Below the pieces are notes generated by a model that did not search any database, had not been told where the DNA came from, and worked only from the letters and a program-made list of their open reading frames with translations. From an uncultured Dehalococcoidia bacterium (GTDB lineage Bacteria > Chloroflexota > Dehalococcoidia > Bin125), in the NCBI GenBank assembly GCA_964347635.1, contig CAYFZI010000008.1, positions 122 through 64,121 of the forward strand: a stretch of DNA of 64,000 nt, read 5' to 3'. This document shows positions 34,378 through 57,920 of this stretch, piece by piece (positions within the stretch are counted from its first letter, which is position 1; each line of letters starts with the position of its first letter). The position numbers and the translations under genes were made by a program.

Positions 34378-34734
34378 TGGTGGAGACGGGGGAGAATCGA
34401 ACTCCCCGTCCAGACGGTCACTCCCTGCAGCCTCTACGCGCGTAGCCGCCGCTTGCAGTGTCCCCGTCCGCCGGCGCGTCGGCCTACCGTTACGGCCAGG
34501 TAATTCGGGATGGTCTTTTCGGCGCGGTCCCGTCATCCCGCGCCGAGCAGCCGAACTGTCGGCGCCGCATTCCCTCCGGTCGGCGGCGGATGGGAGGCGG
34601 CGTCGCCGCGGTTAGGCGGCGAGGGCGAGTTCCTTGGGTTCGCCAGTTAAGGAAGGTGGGCGCAGATTAGCGAGGAGCGCCACCTCGGCGCGCAGCCGCA
34701 GATCAGTCGGCCGCTGTCGATCCCTTTCGTCCCC
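34378..34734 (-). ncRNA. ssrA: tmRNA (transfer-messenger RNA)
   Basis: - Minus-strand RNA begins GGGGACGAAAGGGAUCGAC and ends ...GGGGAGUUCGAUUCUCCCCCGUCUCCACCA.
- T-arm: GGGGAG / UUCGAUU / CUCCCC.
- Acceptor stem: GGGGACG pairs with CGUCUCC, including the G3:U pair, followed by discriminator A and CCA.
- Internal tag ORF: ...GGC GAA CCC AAG GAA CUC GCC CUC GCC GCC UAA, reading GEPKELALAA followed by a stop. Confidence 0.85.
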
Positions 34735-38116: not shown

Positions 38117-38641
38117 TCAGGCGTTGCTGCGGCGCAGCGCGCGGGCGATTTCGCGGTTCGTCTCGCGCTCGCGGATGCGGTCGCGCTTTTCGTGCTCGCG
38201 CTTGCCGCGGCCGATCCCGAGCTCCAGCTTGGCCAGCCCGCCCTTGAGGTAGAGCTGCAGCGGCACGAGCGTCAGGCGGCGCTGCTCGAACGCGGCCTCG
38301 AGCTGGTTGATCTCGCGCCGGTGCAGCAGCAGGCGGCGGTCGCGCGTCGGCTCGTGATTGGCCTCGCCGGCGGGCTCGTAGCGCGCGATATGAGCGCCGA
38401 TCAACCACAGCTGGCGGTTGCGCGGGCGGCAGTAGGCCTCCGCGATTGAGCCGCGGCCCAGCCGCAGCGACTTGATCTCGCTGCCGCGCAGCTCGATCCC
38501 GGCCTCGAAGCGCTGCAGGATCTCATACTGCCAGTGCGCGCGCCGGTTGCGGGCGAGGACGCGGTTGTTCTGCCGATCGGGATCGGGCTGGGCCGCGGTC
38601 TCGGCGGCGCGGCGCTGTTTGGAACGCGATCGTGCGGCCAC
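38117..38641 (-). CDS. smpB: SsrA-binding protein SmpB
   Basis: RRAHWQYEILQRFEAGIELRGSEIKSLR...LLLHRREI matches the SmpB core. Confidence 0.85.
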   Translation of the reverse strand: MAARSRSKQRRAAETAAQPDPDRQNNRVLARNRRAHWQYEILQRFEAGIELRGSEIKSLRLGRGSIAEAYCRPRNRQLWLIGAHIARYEPAGEANHEPTRDRRLLLHRREINQLEAAFEQRRLTLVPLQLYLKGGLAKLELGIGRGKREHEKRDRIRERETNREIARALRRSNA

Positions 38642-38703
38642 GCGTCGAGTTTACGGCGGTGCAGCGAAGGCGGCACAGCCGCAGCGGGCCGCCGCGTGCA
38701 GCC

Positions 38704-43183: not shown

Positions 43184-44599
43184 ATGAGAACTGTTGCCGC
43201 CGGGATCATCAGCGCGTTGACACTGACACTGGCGGCATTCGCGCCCGCCGCCTGCGGATCGGAGCCGCAGGACGCCGCCGAGCCGCCCGCAGCCGCGGCG
43301 GAACGCGGGCAAGTGCAGCAGCAGGCCGTCCAACAGTCGGCCCGGCAGAGCGCAGCCCAGGACGGCGCGGCGCAGCAGACAGCGCCGGCGCGGGAGAGCG
43401 CCGAAGACGCAGCCGACCGACCCAACAGCGCTGAGGCCCAGAACAGCAGCGGGCAGCAGGCGGCGCCCGCGGCCCAGGAGCAACAGCAAGCAGCGCCGAC
43501 GCTCAGTGCCGCAGCGCAAGAGGCGGCCGGCTGGAGCGAGGAGGAGCTGCAGCGGCGGGCTGAGGCAATCGCCGCTGCAGGCTCGGTCAGCGATCTCGTT
43601 GGGATCAACGCCTGGCTCAACGGCGCCGAGACCACGATCGCGCGCGAGCTGGCCAAAGGCAACATCGTGCTGATCGACTTCTGGACCTACACCTGCGTGA
43701 ACTGCATCCGCACCCTGCCCTTTCTGACCGAATGGCACGCCAAATACGGCGGCCGCGGGCTCACGATCATCGGCGTCCACACGCCCGAATTCGAGTTCGA
43801 GAAGGACCGGGCCAACGTCAGCGAGGCGATCGAGCAATACGGGATCGAGTACCTCGTCGCACAGGACAACGACTTCCGCACCTGGCGCGCCTTCAACAAC
43901 CGCTTCTGGCCGGCCAAGTACCTGATCGGCCCGGTGATGGGCATCCGCTATCAGCACTTCGGCGAAGGCGACTACCTCGAGACCGAGCAGGCGATTCGGC
44001 GCGCGCTGGCCGACGCCGGCTGGGACCTGAGCGGCGTCGCGGAAGGCTCAACAGCGGCGGCGCCGCAGCGCGATCCGGTCGCCCGCGGCCAGACCCGCGA
44101 GCTCTACGGCGGCACGCACCGCAACTACGGCTCGGTCCAGTACGCCGCCCAGCCCGAGTACTACCTCCAGGCCGGCGCGGCGCAGCTCTACACAGATATC
44201 GAGGCCGGGCAGCGGCAGCCCCATAAGTGGTACCTGCAGGGGCTCTGGCGCAACGATCCCGAGGCGATCGTGCACGCCCGCAGGACGGAGAACCTGGAGG
44301 ACTACCTGGCCTTCGCCTTCACCGCGCGGACGGTCAACGTGGTCCTCACGGTGGCCGCGGATGAAGCGCCGTTCAACGTCTACCTCGAGCTGGACGGCCG
44401 CTGGCTGCGGCCGGACGAGGCGGGCGCGGATGTCCTCTTCGACGGCGAGGAGCGCTCGTTCGTGCGGGTCACGCGCAACGACCTCTATCGGCTGGTCGAG
44501 CTGCCGGTCTGGAGTACGCACGAACTGAAGCTGCGCTCAAACTCGGATCAGCTGGCGATCTTCGCCTTCACATTCGGCTCCTATCTGGGCGGTGAATGA
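43184..44599 (+). CDS. Thioredoxin-like (redoxin/DipZ C-terminal-like) lipoprotein
   Basis: LAAFAPAACGS lipobox. A low-complexity linker follows. FWTYTCVNCIRTLP is a CxxC thioredoxin-fold motif. Confidence 0.75.
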   Translation: MRTVAAGIISALTLTLAAFAPAACGSEPQDAAEPPAAAAERGQVQQQAVQQSARQSAAQDGAAQQTAPARESAEDAADRPNSAEAQNSSGQQAAPAAQEQQQAAPTLSAAAQEAAGWSEEELQRRAEAIAAAGSVSDLVGINAWLNGAETTIARELAKGNIVLIDFWTYTCVNCIRTLPFLTEWHAKYGGRGLTIIGVHTPEFEFEKDRANVSEAIEQYGIEYLVAQDNDFRTWRAFNNRFWPAKYLIGPVMGIRYQHFGEGDYLETEQAIRRALADAGWDLSGVAEGSTAAAPQRDPVARGQTRELYGGTHRNYGSVQYAAQPEYYLQAGAAQLYTDIEAGQRQPHKWYLQGLWRNDPEAIVHARRTENLEDYLAFAFTARTVNVVLTVAADEAPFNVYLELDGRWLRPDEAGADVLFDGEERSFVRVTRNDLYRLVELPVWSTHELKLRSNSDQLAIFAFTFGSYLGGE

Positions 44600-44609
44600 T
44601 GGGCGGTGC

Positions 44610-45746
44610 ATGATGCTCCCGACGCCCTTGGCCGGCCTTGCCCTGCTCGCGGGTCTGTTTGCGGGCCTGCTCGCCGCGGCCTGCGGCGGCGGCGCTGAGC
44701 AGCAAGCAGCGCGCCCCGAACCCGACCAGCCGCCCGCAGCGCAGCAAACAGTGCAGCAAACCGCCGCCGAGCAGGCTCCAGCCGATCAAGCCGCCGATCA
44801 ATCCGAGCAACCAGCCCAGGCGCAGCAGCAAGAACAGCAGCAAGAAGAGCCCGCCGATGCTCCCGCCGCCGCCGACCTGCTGCGCCCCGCCGCCGTCGAT
44901 GAGCTCAGCCCGCGGCTGGCGCTGCTGACCGACGGCGGCTACCCGGTCTACGTCAGCGAGGCCGGCTTCACCGTGGCGCTTGGCACGCCCGACCTCGGCA
45001 TCGGCGATCAGCGCCTCAGCATCGTGGTCGAGAGCGCGGAGGGGCTCGTCGAGTTTCCCGCTCTCGCGCTGCGCTACTGGCCCGCCGACGGCGGCCCGGC
45101 CAACGTCGCCGAAGCGCTCGCCGCCTTCACTCTCTTCCCCGACGGCGTGCGCGGCTTTCACGTCGCACAGCTGACCTTCGAGCAGGCCGGCGATTGGGTG
45201 CTCAGCGTGCGCACGCCGACCGTCGACGGCTTCGTCGATCTGCCGCTTGCGATCGAAGTGCGGGCCGACCCGCGCGCGCCCGCCGTCGGCGAGCAGCCGC
45301 CGGCCTCGATCAACCGCACCCTGCGCGACGTCTCAGGTGCGGAACAGCTCTCCACCGGCGCGGAGCCCGACGCCACGCTCTACGAACTCACGATCGCCGA
45401 GGCGCTCGAGCGCGGCGAGCCGTTCATCATCGTGTTCGCCAGCCCCGGCTTCTGCACGAACGCGTTTTGCGGCCCGCAGGTCGAGGTGCTCAGCGAGCTG
45501 CGCCGGCTGCATCCGGCCAAGGCCGGCTACATCCACGTTGATCTCTACGAGAACCCGCTCGAAGTGCGCCGCGGCGAGCCGCCCCAGGAGACGCCGCTGC
45601 TCGAAGAGTGGGGCCTCGAAACCGATGAGTGGACGTTCGTGATCGGCGCCGACGGCAAAGTCGCCGCCCGCTTCGAAGCCTTCGCGCCGCTCGAAGAGGT
45701 CGAGGCCGCCCTCTTGCTCTCCTGGAACGCGGCGCAGGGCCAATAA
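44610..45746 (+). CDS. Lipoprotein with C-terminal thioredoxin-like/SCO-like region
   Basis: LAAACGGG lipobox and a Q/A-rich linker. FIIVFASPGFCTNAFCGPQ follows. It overlaps the upstream gene by 8 nt at the ORF level. Confidence 0.55.
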   Translation: MMLPTPLAGLALLAGLFAGLLAAACGGGAEQQAARPEPDQPPAAQQTVQQTAAEQAPADQAADQSEQPAQAQQQEQQQEEPADAPAAADLLRPAAVDELSPRLALLTDGGYPVYVSEAGFTVALGTPDLGIGDQRLSIVVESAEGLVEFPALALRYWPADGGPANVAEALAAFTLFPDGVRGFHVAQLTFEQAGDWVLSVRTPTVDGFVDLPLAIEVRADPRAPAVGEQPPASINRTLRDVSGAEQLSTGAEPDATLYELTIAEALERGEPFIIVFASPGFCTNAFCGPQVEVLSELRRLHPAKAGYIHVDLYENPLEVRRGEPPQETPLLEEWGLETDEWTFVIGADGKVAARFEAFAPLEEVEAALLLSWNAAQGQ

Positions 45747-45782
45747 CGGCCAGCCGGCAGCCGCGCCGCCGACGCTCAGCCT

Positions 45783-46158
45783 TCAGTCTCAATCGGGTGC
45801 TCGAGCGCGTAGCCGTACTCGTGCCAGGACGCGTCGTAGTTCGCCGCCTGATCCCAGCCCAGCAGCCGCAGCAGGAAGAATCCGTGCGCCGCACGGATGC
45901 CGCCCGGTCAATAGGTGGTCACGCGCTTGTCGGGCGTGATTCCGATATCGGCCAGCATTGCGCGCAGCTGCGCGGGCGGCTTGAGCGTGCGTAGCGGGGA
46001 CTCCAGCGTCTGCAGCCACTCGAGATGCTATGCAGCCGCTGATAGGCCGGCAGCAGATCGCAATCGAGCAGCACCAGATCTTCGTCGTCAATGTGCTCGG
46101 CGAGCCAATCGGTGCTGCAAAGCAGCTCTGGGCGGGCCCAGCCCTCGTCAGTGGTCAT
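45783..46158 (-). pseudogene. Rhodanese/sulfurtransferase remnant (frameshift, internal deletion, TGA at catalytic Cys)
   Basis: - Frame A: MTTDEGWARPELLCSTDWLAEHIDDEDLVLLDC..., the domain-1 N-terminus.
- A shifted frame: ...LRTLKPPAQLRAMLADIGITPDKRVTTY-TGA-PGGIRAAHGFFLLRLLGWDQAANYDASWHEYG, the domain-2 C-terminus.
- About 150 aa are missing between the two parts.
- TGA sits where the active-site Cys is expected. Confidence 0.5.
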
Positions 46159-50887: not shown

Positions 50888-52249
50888 TCAGGCGCCGGCC
50901 GCGGCCAGCGCCGGGTGCGGGCGCGTCCAGCCCATCGCCCGCCCCAGCAGCAGCATCACCAAGGCAAACGTCGAAAACACCGCCGCCGCCCAGAACACCG
51001 TTTCGACAGAAAGCAGCTGGCCGACAACGGCCAGCACCGCCGCCACAAAGCCGCCGATATCCCAGGCCAGCTGGAATGTCGCCGTCGCCCCGCCGCGCTG
51101 CGTCGGCGCGACCCGATCGACCGCCAAGGCCAGCAGCCCCGTATGCGCTGCTCCCATCCCGATCCCGGTCAACGCCCCGGCCGGGACCAGCATCAGCGCT
51201 GTCTCCGCCTGCGTCAGCACGACCAGCCCGGCGACCGTCGCGATCAAGCCGGGGACGATCACCGGCACCCGCCCGACTATGTCGGAGGCGCGCCCGGCCA
51301 GCGGGCGCGTGATCATCGCGCCCGCTCCGCTGAACAGGAAGAAGAGCCCGATCCCCTCCACGCCGCCGAAGTTTCTGTCGGGGTCGGCGTCTTCGAGCGA
51401 GGGGAGAAACGCGGCTGCGGTGCTGAAGGTCAGCGTGATGCTGAGAAACACGAACATCGGAAACACCGCCGGCGGGGGCACGAGCGCGCGCAGGCTGAGC
51501 GGCGGCGGCGGCTGGCCGGAGTGCTGCGGCTCGCGCTTGAAGAAGGTCAGCGCGAACGACGCCAGCGCCGTGATCAAGGCCGCCGCCAGCACCGCGTCGA
51601 AGCCGCCCAGATAGGCGAAGAAGAGGCCGCCGAGCATCGGGCTCACGGTCTGCGCCGCGGAGGTCGAGAGGCCGAAGAAGCCGAGCCCTTCGCCGCGCCG
51701 CGGCGTCGGCACGATCTCCGCGACGAACGAGCCCGCCGCCGTCGGGTAGGCGGCCATGCTCAGCCCGTGTACGCAGCGCAGCGCGAACAAGATCCAGATG
51801 TCGTTGGCGAAGATCATCAGCGCGAACGAGGCGGCGAATGAAAGCAGGCCGATCCGCATCAGCCGGATGCGGCGCCCGGCATCGCTCCAGCGGCCCACGA
51901 AGGGGCGCAGGAAGATCGGGATCAGGCTGTAGCCGCTGGTGATCAGGCCGATCTCCAGCACGCTCGCCCCGCGCTCGACCAGTTCGCCGGGCAGCGTCGC
52001 GGTGAGATAGAAGAAGCAGGCGAAGAAGGAGAACGTTCCCATCAGCGCCAGGAGGTACTGGCCCGACCAGAGCGGCGGCCGCTGGCCCAGCCGCACGGCG
52101 GCGGCGGCGGCCGAAACGGCAAGACGCTGCGGGGCCGCGCGTGCCGTCCAGCCGGCGTGCGTGAGGGGCGCGCGCGCGGAAACGGTCAGAACTCCGGCGG
52201 ACCGATGCCGCTCAGCGAGCCCTCGCCGTGGCCGTTCGTCTGCGGACAC
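50888..52249 (-). CDS. MFS transporter
   Basis: 12-TM pattern with MFS-type loops (RPFVGRWSD). The true start is probably internal, because the ORF overlaps the upstream DUF3090 gene by 64 nt. Confidence 0.7.
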   Translation of the reverse strand: MSADERPRRGLAERHRSAGVLTVSARAPLTHAGWTARAAPQRLAVSAAAAAVRLGQRPPLWSGQYLLALMGTFSFFACFFYLTATLPGELVERGASVLEIGLITSGYSLIPIFLRPFVGRWSDAGRRIRLMRIGLLSFAASFALMIFANDIWILFALRCVHGLSMAAYPTAAGSFVAEIVPTPRRGEGLGFFGLSTSAAQTVSPMLGGLFFAYLGGFDAVLAAALITALASFALTFFKREPQHSGQPPPPLSLRALVPPPAVFPMFVFLSITLTFSTAAAFLPSLEDADPDRNFGGVEGIGLFFLFSGAGAMITRPLAGRASDIVGRVPVIVPGLIATVAGLVVLTQAETALMLVPAGALTGIGMGAAHTGLLALAVDRVAPTQRGGATATFQLAWDIGGFVAAVLAVVGQLLSVETVFWAAAVFSTFALVMLLLGRAMGWTRPHPALAAAGA

Positions 52250-52725
52250 AGGTGCTCATCGCCTTCAAGCGGTTGTTTGCATAACGGGCAGGCCGGCCGG
52301 CCGCCGGCGACCGCCAGCTCGGCCTGCACGGTGAAGCCGCGGGCGATCTCGCGGGTAAAGTCGACGCGCAGCGTGGGGCGATCGTTCTGCGCCTCGATGT
52401 CGGTCGCAAACAAGCTCAGCGTGCGCGCGTCCTCGTCGTAGCCGAGCGCGATCCGCCCGGCGAGAAACTCGTGCGTGGGGCGCTCGGGGAACGCGATCAG
52501 CGGCGGCGCGCTGGGGCGGCGGCGCTCCTCCCCGCGCCGGTGGCGGGCCAGCACCTGCTGCACCGCCGTCGCCAGCGAGTTGACCTGCTCTTTCTCGCAC
52601 CAGATCGATGCGGTCACCTGTCCGGCCGTCACGCGCAGGCGGAAGCGCCGCCGGCCCGGCTCTCCGATCGCTTCAGCCTCGAGGGCGGTTGCCGATCCCA
52701 AATCCCACTCGGCGGAGGAAGTCAT
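52186..52725 (-). CDS. DUF3090 family protein
   Basis: Start MTSSAEWDLG. The C-terminal CPLCKQPLEGDEHLCPQTNGH matches the DUF3090 zinc-ribbon-like end. Confidence 0.7.
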   Translation of the reverse strand: MTSSAEWDLGSATALEAEAIGEPGRRRFRLRVTAGQVTASIWCEKEQVNSLATAVQQVLARHRRGEERRRPSAPPLIAFPERPTHEFLAGRIALGYDEDARTLSLFATDIEAQNDRPTLRVDFTREIARGFTVQAELAVAGGRPACPLCKQPLEGDEHLCPQTNGHGEGSLSGIGPPEF

Positions 52726-52831
52726 GGCTGCGAGTCTATATCCAGCGCCGATCGGCGCAGGCAGGGCAGCGTAGGATGCGCAGCGCAGGGTGCTGCGGCG
52801 GCCGGCGCCGCAGCGCGGAAGGGAGCGGCTG

Positions 52832-53299
52832 ATGACAGTCGAAGTGGGGCAGCAGGCGCCGGATTTCACGCTGATGGACGGCGATCGACGCGAACATCAG
52901 CTCAGCGAATACCGCGGCCGGCCGGTCGTCGTGGCCTGGTACGTGCTCGCCTTCACCGGCGGTTGAACAAACGAGCTGAGCCGCTTCCAGGAGCTCCATG
53001 AGGAGTTCGAGGCGGCTGGCGCCCAGGTGCTGGGCATCAGCGTCGATTCACCGTTTGCCGCCGGCGCCTACGCGCGCGAGCTCGGCCTGAGCTTCCCGCT
53101 CCTGGGCGACTTTCCTTACGGGAAGACGGGCAAGGTCTGGGGCATCCTCAACGAGCAGCGGGGCGTGACCGCGCGGATGACATATGTGCTCGACGCCGAA
53201 GGTGCCGTGCGCCATATCGTCGACGCGCCGCGCGATTTTGCGCTGCACGCTGAGCAGTCGCTGGCTCAGGTGCAAGCACTGGCGCAGGGCGATTCTTAG
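52832..53299 (+). CDS. Peroxiredoxin (AhpC/TSA family) with in-frame TGA at the peroxidatic Cys; candidate selenoprotein
   Basis: - ATG at 52832, reading MTVEVGQQAPDFTLMDGDRREHQLSEYRGRPVVVAWYVLAFTGG-TGA-TNELSRFQELHEEFEAAGAQVLGISVDSPF...
- The track ORFs 53027..53299 (+) and 52736..52999 (-) confirm this frame.
- TGA (about 52964-52966) occupies the Cys of the Prx T-x-x-C motif.
- 155 codons in total. Confidence 0.6.
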
Positions 53300-53750
53300 C
53301 GCTGTGTAAAATCGGCTTGCGTTTGCCGCTCGGCCGTTCGACGATAACCCGCGTCAGCAGCCGTTCTGCCCATCGGCCGGGCGCGCTGCTGAGACGCTCC
53401 TTGGTGGCGGGGCGCCCGGAGTCGCTCCCATGGTCACCAAGATTTCCGCAGATCGCTGCGTCCACAGCTGGGTGCTCGCTTCACCGAACGGCTCGACCAG
53501 CCCCGGCCAGTGCATCAAGTGCGGCGCGCGGCGGCGCTTCGCCAATTCCTTCCCCGACCTCGAGCGGACCAACAACTCGGACCTGTTCGGCGATCGGAGC
53601 CGCCGCTCTCGGCGCGGCGCCGAGGCCTACTCCGAGAGCAGCGAGGGCGATATCGAGCAGGCGCTGAGCTCCATGCGCGGCCGCGGCGGCCGCCCGCGCT
53701 GACGCGGGCGCCGGCACAGGCTCGAGCGGCCGCAGGGCTAGACTGTTCGC

Positions 53751-54047
53751 GTGAGCACAGCGCAGGGCGGCAGCCCCGACTTGGCCAGCTACAAGGTCCA
53801 TACGCTCCCCTTTGAGGAGTGGCTCGACGTCGATACGCTGCTGCACCGCAGCTCGGTCACCAGCGGCGAGTTCGACTACGTGCTGCGGCCGCTCTGCCCG
53901 GAGTGCGGCGAGGAGTGCGAGCTCGAGTACGACATCGTCGCCGAGGCCGACGGCAGCGAAGTCATCTCGGCGCTTGTCTGCCACGCTTGCCAGGAACTCT
54001 GGGAGGCCGAAGCGCCGCCTGATGAGGCCGGCGCGGAGAGGCGCTAG
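53751..54047 (+). CDS. Hypothetical small zinc-ribbon protein
   Basis: Two CxxC pairs: CPECG...CHAC. Confidence 0.4.
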   Translation: MSTAQGGSPDLASYKVHTLPFEEWLDVDTLLHRSSVTSGEFDYVLRPLCPECGEECELEYDIVAEADGSEVISALVCHACQELWEAEAPPDEAGAERR

Positions 54048-54091
54048 GCTCGTGCCGACGCCCGCGCCAGCATGAATCGAGTTCGGCATCG

Positions 54092-54376
54092 ATGAGCGTT
54101 GTTGTACGAATCCCCACCCCGCTGCGCGGCCTCACCGGCGGCCGGGATGCCGTCGACGGCAGCGGCGGCTCGGTCGGCGAGATTGTCGCCGACCTCGAAC
54201 GCCAATACCCCGGCATGGCCGAGCGCCTGATCGACGAGGGCGGCGAGCTGCGCCGCTTCGTCAACGTCTTCGTCAACGGCGAGGATGTGCGCTTCCTCGA
54301 AGGGATGGCGACGGCGATCGGCGCGGGCGACGAGGTCAGCATCGTGCCCGCCGTCGCCGGCGGCAGCCGCAGCTAA
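54092..54376 (+). CDS. MoaD/ThiS/CysO-family sulfur-carrier protein
   Basis: Near colinear with CysO-type carriers (PTPLRGLTGG...RFVNVFVNGEDVRFLEGMATAIGAGDEVSIVPAVAGG). A 3-residue tail (SRS) follows the Gly-Gly. Confidence 0.7.
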   Translation: MSVVVRIPTPLRGLTGGRDAVDGSGGSVGEIVADLERQYPGMAERLIDEGGELRRFVNVFVNGEDVRFLEGMATAIGAGDEVSIVPAVAGGSRS

Positions 54377-55080: not shown

Positions 55081-55128
55081 TCCCGCGGACCGCACTGCTG
55101 ACTGCAATGCCGAGAAGGGAGCGGCAGC

Positions 55129-56520
55129 ATGGACGAACTGATCTACTCGCCGCTGGCCGCGATCGTCGGCGCGATCCGCGCCCGAGAAGTCTCCGCCCGC
55201 GAAGTGCTCGAGGCTCACCTCGCCCGCATCGAACAAGTCAACGGCGGCCTCAACGCGGTTGTCCAGCTTTGCGCGGAGCGGGCCCGCGCGGAGGCCGAGG
55301 CCGCCGACGCCGCCGTGCGCCGCGGCGGCGAGCTCGGACCGCTGCACGGTGTGCCAATCACGCTCAAGGACTCGCATGACACTGCGGGCGTTGTCAGCAG
55401 CGGCGGCACGCTCGGGCGGCGCAACTTTGTGCCCGAGCACGACTCGACAGTGACCGCGCGGCTGCGCGCCGCCGGCGCAATCCTGATCGGCAAGACGAAC
55501 ACCCCCGAGCTGACCCTCTCCGGCGAAACCGACAATCTCGTCTACGGGCGCAGCAACAATCCGTTCGACCCGGCGCGCACGCCCGGCGGCTCGAGCGGCG
55601 GCGCGGCTGCGATCATCTGCGCCGGCGGCTCGCCGCTCGATCTAGGCAGCGACACCGGCGGCAGCATCCGCCTGCCCGCGCACTTCTGCGGTATCGCCGG
55701 GATCAAGCCCAGCGCGGGACGCGTGCCGCGCAGCGGCCACATCGTGCCCTGGGGCATGGGCGCGCTCGACGCCTGGACCACGATCGGCCCGATGGCCCGG
55801 CGCGTCGAAGACCTGGCCCTCACGCTGCCGATTATCTGCGGCCCTGACGGCGTCGACCCCGCCGTCGCCCCGATGCCGCTGGGCGATCCCGCTGACGTCG
55901 AGATCGGCGCCCTGCGGATCGCCTGGTACGCGGAAGTCGACGGCTACCAACGCCCCAGCGACGACACCAAAGCCGTCCTCGCCGCGGCCGTCGGCGCCCT
56001 GGCCGAGCGCGTCCGTTCGGTTGCGGAGGATCAACCGCCGGCGCTGAGCCGCAGCGTCGATCTCTGGCCGCGCATCGGCGGCGGCGACGGCCGCGCCTGG
56101 GTCGACCGCATGCTTAAGCGTTGGGGCACCACAGAGATCTCGCCCTTGCTCGAAAAAGGCTTCGCGCGGATCGAGCCGAGCACCGCCGCCGAGTACACCG
56201 AAGCGCTGGAGGCCCAGGACCGCTTTCGCAGCGAGATGCTCGGCTTCATCCAGCGCTACGACGCGATTGTCGCGCCAGTCGCTTCCCAGCCGGCGCCCCT
56301 GCACGGCGGCACCTATGAAGGCGGCAACCGCACCATGTTCTACACCGGCCCCTACAACATCTGCGGCTGGCCGGGCGCCGTCGTACGCTGCGGCAGCTCT
56401 GCGGAGGGACTGCCGATCGGCGTCCAGATCATCGCCCGCCCTTGGCGCGACGATGTCGCGCTCGCGCTCGCCGCCGCGCTCGAGTCTGCCCTGGGCGGCT
56501 GGCAGCGTCCGCCGCTGTGA
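55129..56520 (+). CDS. Amidase (amidase-signature family), tandem copy 1
   Basis: GGSSGGAAAIICAGGSPLDLGSDTGGSIRLPA signature. 463 aa. Confidence 0.85.
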   Translation: MDELIYSPLAAIVGAIRAREVSAREVLEAHLARIEQVNGGLNAVVQLCAERARAEAEAADAAVRRGGELGPLHGVPITLKDSHDTAGVVSSGGTLGRRNFVPEHDSTVTARLRAAGAILIGKTNTPELTLSGETDNLVYGRSNNPFDPARTPGGSSGGAAAIICAGGSPLDLGSDTGGSIRLPAHFCGIAGIKPSAGRVPRSGHIVPWGMGALDAWTTIGPMARRVEDLALTLPIICGPDGVDPAVAPMPLGDPADVEIGALRIAWYAEVDGYQRPSDDTKAVLAAAVGALAERVRSVAEDQPPALSRSVDLWPRIGGGDGRAWVDRMLKRWGTTEISPLLEKGFARIEPSTAAEYTEALEAQDRFRSEMLGFIQRYDAIVAPVASQPAPLHGGTYEGGNRTMFYTGPYNICGWPGAVVRCGSSAEGLPIGVQIIARPWRDDVALALAAALESALGGWQRPPL

Positions 56521-57920
56521 GCGCCGCCGACGATCGGCTGATCTTCGCCTCGGCAGCCTCGATCGCGCGCCGCATTCGCGCCAAAGACGTGCCCGCCGTT
56601 GAAGTCCTGGAAGCGCACCTCGCCCGCATCGAACAAGTCAACGGCGGCCTCAACGCGGTTGTCCAGCTTTGCGCGGAGCGGGCCCGCGCGGAGGCCGAGG
56701 CCGCCGACGCCGCCGTGCGCCGCGGCGGCGAGCTCGGACCGCTGCACGGTGTGCCAATCACGCTCAAGGACTCGCACGACACCGCAGGCGTCGTCAGCAG
56801 CGGCGGCACGCTCGGGCGGCGCAACTTTGTGCCCGAACGCGACTCGACAGTGACCGCGCGGCTGTGCGCCGCCGGCGCAATCCTGATCGGCAAGACGAAC
56901 ACCCCCGAGCTAACTATGTGCGGGGAGACCGACAATCTCGTCTACGGGCGCAGCAACAACCCGTTCGACCCGGCGCGCACGCCCGGCGGCTCGAGCGGCG
57001 GCGCGGCTGCGATGATCGCCGCCGGCGGCTCGCCACTCGACATCGGCAGCGACACCGGCGGCAGCATCCGCTCCCCCGCGCACTGCTGCGGCATCGCCGC
57101 GCTCAAGCCCACCTCAGGCCGCGTCCCGCGCAGCGGCCACATCATCCCCTGGGGCATGGGCGCCGCCGACTACGCCACTGTGCTCGGGCCTATGGCGCGG
57201 TTCGTCGAAGACCTCGTTCTCACACTCCCGATCATCTGCGGCCCCGACGGCGTCGACCCGGCGATCGCGCCGATGCCGCTCAACGACCCTGCCGATGTCA
57301 ACCTCGAGCGCCTGCGGATCGCCTGGTACACCGACGTCGACGGCTACGACCCGCCTGACGACGACACGCGGCGCACGGTCGCCGCAGCGGTCGCGGCGCT
57401 CAGCGGCCGCACGGCCTCTGTTCGCGAGGACCACCCCGCCGCGCTGAGCCGCATCCCCGAGCTGCGCAACCGCATCGACGGCCCCGACGGCTGGGCCTGG
57501 GTTGACCGAATGCTGGCCCGCTGGGGCACCGAAGCACGCTCGCCGCAGCTTGCCGCGGTGTTCCCTGAACTTGAGCCGATCAGCTCGTCCGACTTCATGC
57601 AGGCGCTCGAAGAGCAGGACCGCATTCGGAGCGAGATGCTCGGCTGGCTGCAGGGCTGCGACGCCGTCATCGCCCCCGTCGCCGCGATGCCCGCACCCGA
57701 GCACGGCAGCACGCTGCAGCGCGCAAACCGCACCCGGTTCTACACCGCGCCCTACAACATCAGCGGCTGGCCTGCTGCCGTCGTGCGCTGCGGCAGCTCC
57801 GCCGAGGGCCTCCCGATCGGCCTGCAGATCATCGCCCATCCCTGGCGCGAAGACGTTGCGCTGGCGCTCGCCGCCGCGCTCGAGCTGGATCTCGGCGGCT
57901 GGCAGCCTCCGCCGCTCTGA
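56517..57920 (+). CDS. Amidase (amidase-signature family), tandem copy 2
   Basis: The GTG start overlaps the copy-1 stop (GTGA). The N-terminal third is nearly identical to copy 1. Confidence 0.8.
   Translation: MSAADDRLIFASAASIARRIRAKDVPAVEVLEAHLARIEQVNGGLNAVVQLCAERARAEAEAADAAVRRGGELGPLHGVPITLKDSHDTAGVVSSGGTLGRRNFVPERDSTVTARLCAAGAILIGKTNTPELTMCGETDNLVYGRSNNPFDPARTPGGSSGGAAAMIAAGGSPLDIGSDTGGSIRSPAHCCGIAALKPTSGRVPRSGHIIPWGMGAADYATVLGPMARFVEDLVLTLPIICGPDGVDPAIAPMPLNDPADVNLERLRIAWYTDVDGYDPPDDDTRRTVAAAVAALSGRTASVREDHPAALSRIPELRNRIDGPDGWAWVDRMLARWGTEARSPQLAAVFPELEPISSSDFMQALEEQDRIRSEMLGWLQGCDAVIAPVAAMPAPEHGSTLQRANRTRFYTAPYNISGWPAAVVRCGSSAEGLPIGLQIIAHPWREDVALALAAALELDLGGWQPPPL

Follow-up and report, generated by a model that had tools for sequence, protein, structure and literature searches.

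The 64,000-nt stretch of DNA analysed here (hereafter the window), from contig CAYFZI010000008.1 of an uncultured Dehalococcoidia bacterium, carries a peroxiredoxin (Prx) gene of the AhpC/TSA family with an in-frame UGA at the codon of the peroxidatic cysteine (Cp). Very probably the gene is a genuine selenocysteine (Sec)-decoded peroxiredoxin, with Sec predicted to be inserted at the UGA. An earlier note, made from the letters of the window alone, had proposed a peroxiredoxin with Sec at the peroxidatic site, and comparison with related genomes pointed the same way: the UGA aligned with the Cys of homologues, and TGA occurred at this codon in 28 other genomes. The reading of the UGA as decoded follows from this conservation of the TGA, from selection on both of its flanks, from a conserved hairpin directly downstream, and from a second predicted selenoprotein gene, a rhodanese, in the same genomes.

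The gene started at an ATG (52832–52834) and stopped at a TAG (53297–53299) on the forward strand, with 155 sense codons. Its sole in-frame interruption was the TGA at 52964–52966, which is codon 45; in a mechanical list of open reading frames (ORFs), the two gene halves appeared as separate ORFs in one frame. The complete 155-codon AhpC/TSA ORF that had been described from the ATG at 52832 was exact in its coordinates and gave a full-profile Pfam match, and a caveat attached to it, of a possible one-base offset in the position of the TGA, was unfounded. The TGA codon is not reassigned genome-wide, because TGA terminated 16 of the 38 confidently coding ORFs in the window.

Orthologues were collected from one genome per species, which gave 22 orthologous loci from Dehalococcoidia/Chloroflexota metagenome-assembled genomes (MAGs), many of them closed chromosomes of 2.4–3.7 Mb; counts of 23 refer to the window plus these 22 loci, and 80 related loci were considered in all, 58 of them more distant. 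The 22 orthologues were 74–89% identical in amino acids to the window protein and had different flanking genes. Each of them (22/22) had one in-frame stop only, at codon 45, and this was always TGA and never TAA, TAG or TGC, and no further stops or frameshifts were present. The same organism has also been assembled independently (L083); that assembly was 99.95% identical to the window over 14.3 kb and had 0 differences in the 468 nt of the gene, TGA included. The recurrence of the TGA in this assembly, in the 22 orthologues and in six more distant homologues goes far beyond chance. No close relative had TGC at codon 45, and the nearest Cys forms were at most 48% identical.

In codons 1–44, amino acids were kept in 20–23 of the 23 sequences while being encoded by 2–4 synonymous codons, and the downstream codons behaved likewise. 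As judged from this pattern of substitution, both halves are under protein-level purifying selection in one frame, which neither a pseudogene nor a sequencing error nor termination at codon 45 could explain. The continuation of homology in frame on both sides of the TGA, as claimed before, was thus borne out by the span of the Pfam match and by the conserved flanks of the orthologues. The Gly codon directly before the TGA (codon 44) was GGT in 23/23 sequences, whereas Gly codons 29 and 43 varied freely, and the U so fixed directly before the UGA may be a recoding context effect.

The read-through product matched the Pfam profile AhpC-TSA (PF00578) with residues 5–129 over profile positions 1–124 of 124 (E 8.5e-35; 119.8 bits, above the membership cut-off of 26), and it also matched the Redoxin profile. 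Its best relatives of solved structure were entries of Mycobacterium tuberculosis AhpE (Rv2238c; E ~8e-23), with 41% identity over 125 aligned residues. The top matches in the PDB were all AhpE, at 84 bits vs. 72 for the next subfamily, with an identity of only 41%. In the active site, LAFTGG-U-TNEL aligned with LAFTGI-C-QGEL of AhpE, so that T42-G-G-U45 fell on T42-G-I-C45; the placement of the TGA on the Cys of the T-x-x-C motif was therefore upheld, the Cys being Cys45 of AhpE. Arg115 aligned with the catalytic Arg of AhpE (GIANRGTF).

The window protein had no Cys anywhere; hence it has no resolving cysteine and would need an external thiol reductant. Sec and Cys forms differed around the active site in a family alignment of 29 Sec forms (the 23 orthologues and six distant homologues) and 53 Cys forms. 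The Thr of the motif was invariant in the Sec forms (29/29). At position −7 from Cp, which is the Pro of the PxxxTxxC motif, Val was present in 28 Sec forms and Phe in 1, and Pro in 53/53 Cys forms; the Pro conserved in the peroxiredoxin family is thus replaced by Val38 in the window protein. One Cys homologue from the database (P0024, ...HIFSFTGGC...) also lacked the Pro and had Ile there. Position −1 was Gly in 29/29 Sec forms, and Val, Ile, Thr or Ala in the 53 Cys forms. Position +5, where BCP/PrxQ proteins have their resolving Cys, was Cys in 48/53 Cys forms and in 0/29 Sec forms; the residue was Ser, Lys, Ala or Ile among the Sec forms, and Ser50 in the window protein. The protein scored 76.5 bits against the NCBIfam model NF040737 (peroxi_PrxU), below its cut-off of 270. 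The earlier label 'PrxU-like' therefore holds for function, with Sec predicted at the peroxidatic position, but not for family, the closest solved relative being 1-Cys AhpE. On these alignments, the protein would be an AhpE-like '1-Sec' peroxiredoxin comparable to 1-Cys AhpE, and AhpE is its nearest characterised relative.

When the 60 nt from the UGA were folded, a hairpin at 52975–53020 was predicted with a minimum free energy (MFE) of −29.8 kcal/mol (z −3.75), a stability that none of 200 dinucleotide shuffles reached. It consisted of a lower stem of ~9–12 bp, a 3-nt CAG bulge, a 7-bp upper stem of the GGAGCUC/GAGUUCC type and a 4-nt apical loop, and all 23 orthologues folded similarly. The upper-stem pairs (alignment columns 40–44/53–57) were kept in 23/23 sequences, with only A-U to G-U and G-C to G-U changes. 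The lower stem occurred in two registers among orthologues, according to whether the protein sequence was E-A-A or Q-E-A-G; in the commoner register (B), 90% of cells were paired vs. 28–59% with partners slid by 1–3 columns. The RNAalifold consensus kept the upper stem and added helices at columns 7–13/28–34, enclosing the UGA, and 70–75/79–84. The lower stem was missing from this consensus because of the two registers.

Folding after the codon was stronger in Sec than in Cys forms: over 66 nt, the mean shuffle z was −2.0 in Sec forms vs. −0.23 in 52 Cys forms (Mann-Whitney p 1.3e-8), and the difference was also present with the six distant Sec forms alone (p 0.008). With synonymous-codon shuffling, the mean z was −1.3 at the hairpin vs. 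−0.55 to +1.17 in six control segments. Both comparisons argue for a function of the hairpin. The element at 52975–53020 is, as predicted by folding and comparison, a conserved stable hairpin, and it is not covariation-proven. A different hairpin had been drawn before (GAGCUG...AGGAGCUC), in which GAGCU at n10–14 pairs with AGCUC at n29–33. The window sequence allows it, but it was rejected because the MFE fold is another one and because most orthologues, with both arms reading GAACU/AACUC, have lost the pairing. The helix that RNAalifold added around the UGA is an alternative conserved 7-bp helix, GGCGGUU/AGCCGCU, at 52958–52985 (columns 7–13/28–34 of alignment A2), which competes with the lower stem of the hairpin; the U of the UGA lies in its stem and the GA in its loop, and all changes in it were wobble-compatible.

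Screening of the window for other selenoprotein genes by third-position GC content only gave 47 candidates, mostly spurious. A stricter codon-position screen left five, which were the peroxiredoxin, a rhodanese sulfurtransferase, one two-gene junction and two apparent antisense frames. The aminotransferase/SerA junction was rejected as a selenoprotein, being two ordinary genes, and so was the SmpB/CoA-transferase junction, where a TGA closes the smpB-like ORF and a family III coenzyme A (CoA) transferase-like gene comes next in the same frame; these are also separate genes. The search for further TGA-containing selenoprotein genes, which had been suggested as a check, thus yielded the rhodanese within the window, and the only credible internal UGAs were those of the peroxiredoxin and the rhodanese.

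Nineteen relatives had an intact rhodanese of ~281 codons with two domains (Pfam Rhodanese, E 2.8e-32) and the motif VTTY-U-QGGIRAAH. The selenocysteine insertion sequence (SECIS) downstream of its UGA was the same in 19 of 20 genomes, and in the remaining one (L006) one base was changed to a G-U pair with the pairing kept. The codon before the rhodanese UGA was TAT in all rhodanese orthologues, so a U precedes the UGA there too (45908–45913, reverse strand). In the window, the N-terminal piece (46158–46030) and the C-terminal piece (46027–45779) of the rhodanese lay in different frames, and the gap between them reflects a genuine deletion, which would make the gene a pseudogene, or else a collapse in the assembly. 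The frame shift lay near ...AYQRLH|HLEWL..., between two repeated IPGA motifs. Rhodanese-related sulfurtransferases are a published selenoprotein family (PMC1088965), and two Dehalococcoidia MAGs with 46–49 selenoprotein genes each are among the ten most selenoprotein-rich bacteria (BSepDB paper, PMC13326102). The lineage very likely decodes Sec, as judged from the rhodanese gene, because this has TGA at the catalytic Cys and a textbook SECIS in 20 genomes.

Several results weigh against insertion of Sec at codon 45, and they concern the decoding machinery and the hairpin. Searches of the 64-kb window and of the 80 related loci revealed neither tRNA-Sec nor selA, selB or selD. ARAGORN found no tRNA-Sec in the window plus 22 loci, an Rfam scan returned the transfer-messenger RNA (tmRNA) only, and tblastn with Escherichia coli SelA, SelB and SelD against the window and the 80 loci returned only two weak GTPase-domain matches, in unrelated genomes. 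In the hairpin, pair counts over the 23 orthologues in both registers revealed no compensatory (two-sided) covariation, and column shuffles did not separate it from plain conservation at 91% nucleotide identity. The effect of synonymous shuffling was moderate, and non-significant in many individual genomes, because the amino acid sequence (RFQELHxEF) itself encodes much of the pairing and stability. The apical loop, made up of a His codon and a variable codon, was of 4–8 nt with no fixed G (ACUC in L003) and lay ~32–36 nt after the UGA. A canonical bacterial SECIS, in the bSECISearch model, has a small apical loop with a conserved G ~16–37 nt after the UGA. The peroxiredoxin element lies at or beyond the edge of that model and looks non-canonical; it is also unlike the canonical rhodanese SECIS of the same genomes.

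The same body of evidence bears on the other ways of reading the gene. Death or decay of the gene through a TGC to TGA nonsense mutation at the catalytic Cys could be suspected from the splitting of the gene into two pieces by gene callers and from the disrupted appearance of the neighbouring rhodanese gene in this genome; it is, however, very improbable, as the TGA stood at exactly this codon in all 22 orthologues and in the 6 distant homologues, none of which had another stop or a frameshift, amino acids were kept while synonymous sites turned over on both flanks, and no close relative at all carried TGC, Cys forms being reached only at 48% identity or less. With identities of 74–89% and different flanking genes, the orthologues can be neither contaminants nor duplicates of one sequence. 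That the TGA is a sequencing or assembly error of a low-coverage metagenome bin is extremely improbable: one assembly of the organism had ~5x coverage, judged from the contig name, but the independent contig was identical across the gene and the same codon was found in 28 other genomes, many of them closed chromosomes. Hardly more credence is due to real termination at the UGA with two polypeptides as products, a 44-residue peptide and a C-terminal fragment from an internal start. Callers do find starts shortly after the UGA (MSRFQEL... in relatives, MLGISV... in the window), but they differ in their choice and the internal 'start' was not conserved (CTG in the window, TTG or others in relatives); moreover, a single thioredoxin-fold domain spans the break, and the C-terminal piece alone would be without Thr42 and the catalytic residue.

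Decoding of the UGA as something other than Sec would yield a thiol peroxiredoxin, at least part-time, with Cys or Trp inserted by a near-cognate or suppressor tRNA, or Cys inserted by the Sec machinery under selenium scarcity. The unseen Sec machinery in the window and the 80 loci, and the non-canonical hairpin without covariation support, are in its favour. On the other hand, a UGA at the catalytic Cys with a hairpin directly 3' of it is what standardly marks a bacterial selenoprotein gene; the same genomes had another gene of this kind, with a textbook SECIS; TGA served as an ordinary stop in 16 of 38 genes; and the class is rich in selenoproteins (PMC13326102). Non-Sec decoding is improbable on this evidence, and insertion of Sec at codon 45 is the preferred reading.

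From the established bacterial Sec pathway, a ribosome arriving at the UGA of codon 45 would be met by SelB-GTP with Sec-tRNA(Sec), recruited by the mRNA hairpin at 52975–53020, and Sec would be inserted in place of termination by release factor 2. The product would be cytoplasmic, a peroxiredoxin with a single selenocysteine ('1-Sec') from the AhpE-like branch of AhpC/TSA. By analogy with the chemistry of peroxiredoxins, Thr42 and Arg115 would hold the Sec45 selenolate, which would attack the peroxide and be converted to a selenenic acid; candidate substrates are H2O2, an organic or lipid hydroperoxide, and peroxynitrite. As in 1-Cys AhpE, recycling would fall to an external thiol, which could be a low-molecular-weight one or that of a protein of the thioredoxin or glutaredoxin type.

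The protein is 41% identical to AhpE of M. tuberculosis, with which it shares the length class (153 aa in AhpE), the LAFTG-x-C/U-x-x-EL stretch and the catalytic residue at position 45; it differs in having a predicted Sec45 in place of Cys45, and Val38 in place of Pro38. AhpE is recycled by the mycothiol/mycoredoxin system, which is not known to occur in Chloroflexota. Many of the nearest Cys homologues (38–47% identity) are of the BCP/PrxQ atypical 2-Cys type (GAFTGVCTKEMC), which has a resolving Cys five residues after Cp (CxxxxC), the place of Ser50 here. PrxU of Eubacterium acidaminophilum is alike in that Sec replaces the peroxidatic cysteine, but differs in its profile of 233 positions vs. 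155 residues here, the window protein belonging to the AhpE/BCP-like part of the superfamily.

Knowledge of Sec peroxiredoxins (PF00578, TxxU) dates from the description of PrxU in 2001; among the known selenoprotein families in Sargasso Sea data they ranked second in abundance, with 43 COG1225-type genes, and by 2006 at least five independent Cys-to-Sec conversions had already been inferred (PMC13188914, PMC1088965, PMC1794560). The present gene resembles these known members in the AhpC/TSA fold, in the UGA at the peroxidatic Cys within T-x-x-U, in the widespread Cys homologues, and in the SECIS-type hairpin within the coding region directly after the UGA. The family motif given for Sec peroxiredoxins in a review is PxxxTxxU, whereas the 29/29 members of the present clade have Val, rarely Phe, for the Pro. 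Compared with the canonical SECIS model, the window hairpin is longer and its apical loop further from the UGA. No paper on an AhpE-type selenoprotein was found in the literature.

The 58 more distant loci of the same scan had TGC or TGT at the aligned codon in 52 cases and TGA in six, the latter in the same F-T-G-G-U context. These six were from MAGs labelled Clostridia, Acidobacteriota/Pyrinomonadaceae and unclassified bacteria, and their proteins had signal-peptide-like N-terminal extensions. Four of them (L023, L024, L048 and L061) had a shorter hairpin whose GGA/GGC loop, ~27 nt 3' of the UGA, coincides with the CAGG[AC] forming the bulge of the Dehalococcoidia hairpin, and the region after the UGA folded differently in the other two (L035 and L057). 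Neighbour joining of this sample grouped all 29 Sec forms in one clade, which contained no Cys form. It is conceivable, though rather doubtful, that the V-x-x-x-T-G-G-U proteins are a distinct, undescribed Sec-only peroxiredoxin subfamily of Chloroflexota, Clostridia and Acidobacteriota, in which Sec was gained with loss of the active-site Pro and the resolving Cys, and whose UGA is recoded in Dehalococcoidia by a non-canonical extended SECIS, with the same SelB also reading the textbook rhodanese SECIS. The clade may already be catalogued in BSepDB. If the proposal were true, it would offer a natural paired test of the requirements of bacterial SelB and of the effect of Sec on the needs of the peroxiredoxin active site.

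The coordinates of all features are given in Table 1. Gene order was conserved in more than 20 genomes, with rhodanese, S41 peptidase, acyltransferase, nitroreductase, MFS transporter and DUF3090 genes followed divergently by the peroxiredoxin, two small Cys-rich ORFs and ThiS; the genomic context points to no partner. The order of the peroxiredoxin, the two small ORFs and the ThiS/MoaD-family gene was kept in 22/22 relatives, and the ThiS/MoaD-family protein ended in ...AGG-SRS, three residues past the GG. We know of no functional link between the DUF3090/MFS pair and the peroxiredoxin. The N-terminus of the 384-aa protein next to the rhodanese gene resembled a signal peptide or lipoprotein; the protein also had a Q/A/E-rich linker of low complexity and the motif FCTNAFCGP at the C-terminus.

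Table 1. Positions of the features described; numbers are those of the window, except where a locus is named.
Feature	Position	Strand	Remarks
Predicted Sec peroxiredoxin gene, complete	52832–53299	+	Translation of 155 residues, M1...U45...S155, then TAG
Shine-Dalgarno-like GGAAGGGAG	52817–52825	+	Direct sequence reading; 6 nt 5' of the ATG
In-frame UGA, predicted Sec45, peroxidatic position	52964–52966	+	TGA in 23/23 orthologues and 6 distant homologues; TGC/TGT in 52 Cys homologues, same column
Codon 38, Val, where peroxiredoxin PxxxTxxC has Pro	52943–52945	+	Family alignment, Sec vs. Cys forms
Codon 42, active-site Thr of T-x-x-U	52955–52957	+	29/29 Sec forms; aligned with AhpE Thr42
Codon 44, Gly, GGT	52961–52963	+	GGT in 23/23 orthologues; U directly 5' of UGA
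Codon 115, catalytic Arg of peroxiredoxins	53174–53176	+	Invariant in alignments A1 and A3; aligned with Arg of AhpE GIANRGTF
SECIS-like extended hairpin	52975–53020	+	Lower stem 52975–52987/53009–53020; CAG bulge 52988–52990; upper stem-loop 52991–53008
Upper stem-loop, GGAGCUC-C AUGA G-GAGUUC	52991–53008	+	Most strictly conserved part of the hairpin; alone −10.8 kcal/mol, z −3.99
Rhodanese sulfurtransferase, predicted second selenoprotein gene	45779–46158	−	7 kb upstream of the peroxiredoxin; disrupted here, ~463 nt missing between domains plus frame shift
In-frame UGA at rhodanese catalytic Cys (VTTY-U-PGGIRAAH)	45908–45910	−	TGA in the window and 19 relatives
Canonical bacterial SECIS, AUCCGUGC-GGC-GCACGGAU	45880–45898	−	Starts 9 nt after the UGA; 20 genomes
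Distant predicted Sec peroxiredoxins, Y-V-x-A-F-T-G-G-U motif	L023 10001–10381; L024 9062–9445; L035; L048; L057; L061		
Two small conserved ORFs (90 aa; 98 aa with CxxC...CxxC), then ThiS/MoaD-family protein	53430–54376	+	No Pfam match for the two small ORFs
DUF3090 protein; MFS transporter	52189–52725; 50888–52249	−	Divergent from the peroxiredoxin; pairing kept in 21/22 relatives
Tandem amidase (PF01425) paralogues	55102–56520; 56319–57920	+	~82% nucleotide identity
tmRNA gene; smpB-like gene	34378–34734; 38117–38650	−; −	tmRNA tag GEPKELALAA; smpB-like gene ~3.4 kb away
384-aa protein	44592–45746	+	No Pfam match; adjoins the rhodanese gene; conserved in relatives

Sec peroxiredoxins and selenoprotein-rich Dehalococcoidia are already documented, and the general picture is unchanged. 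To the known Sec peroxiredoxins, the gene would add an AhpE-like 1-Sec form with two modest, testable oddities, which are the Val where Pro is canonical and the predicted SECIS differing from the canonical one of the neighbouring gene. In annotation, truncation of the gene had been anticipated, and it has occurred: the public gene calls of the independent assembly consist of a 44-aa piece and a 90-aa "AhpC-TSA" piece, and the 23 closest proteins in a database of 5.8 billion proteins were all C-terminal fragments of 86–112 aa that started just after the TGA (56–99% identity), one of which bears the NCBI name "redoxin domain-containing protein [Chloroflexi bacterium]". Full-length Cys peroxiredoxins in that database reached at most 48% identity. 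Public databases thus store the gene, and its orthologues in at least 23 clusters, as 44-aa, 86–112-aa or truncated redoxin pieces, and, because of this annotation as fragments, the antioxidant capacity and the selenium dependence of these soil Dehalococcoidia would be under-counted.

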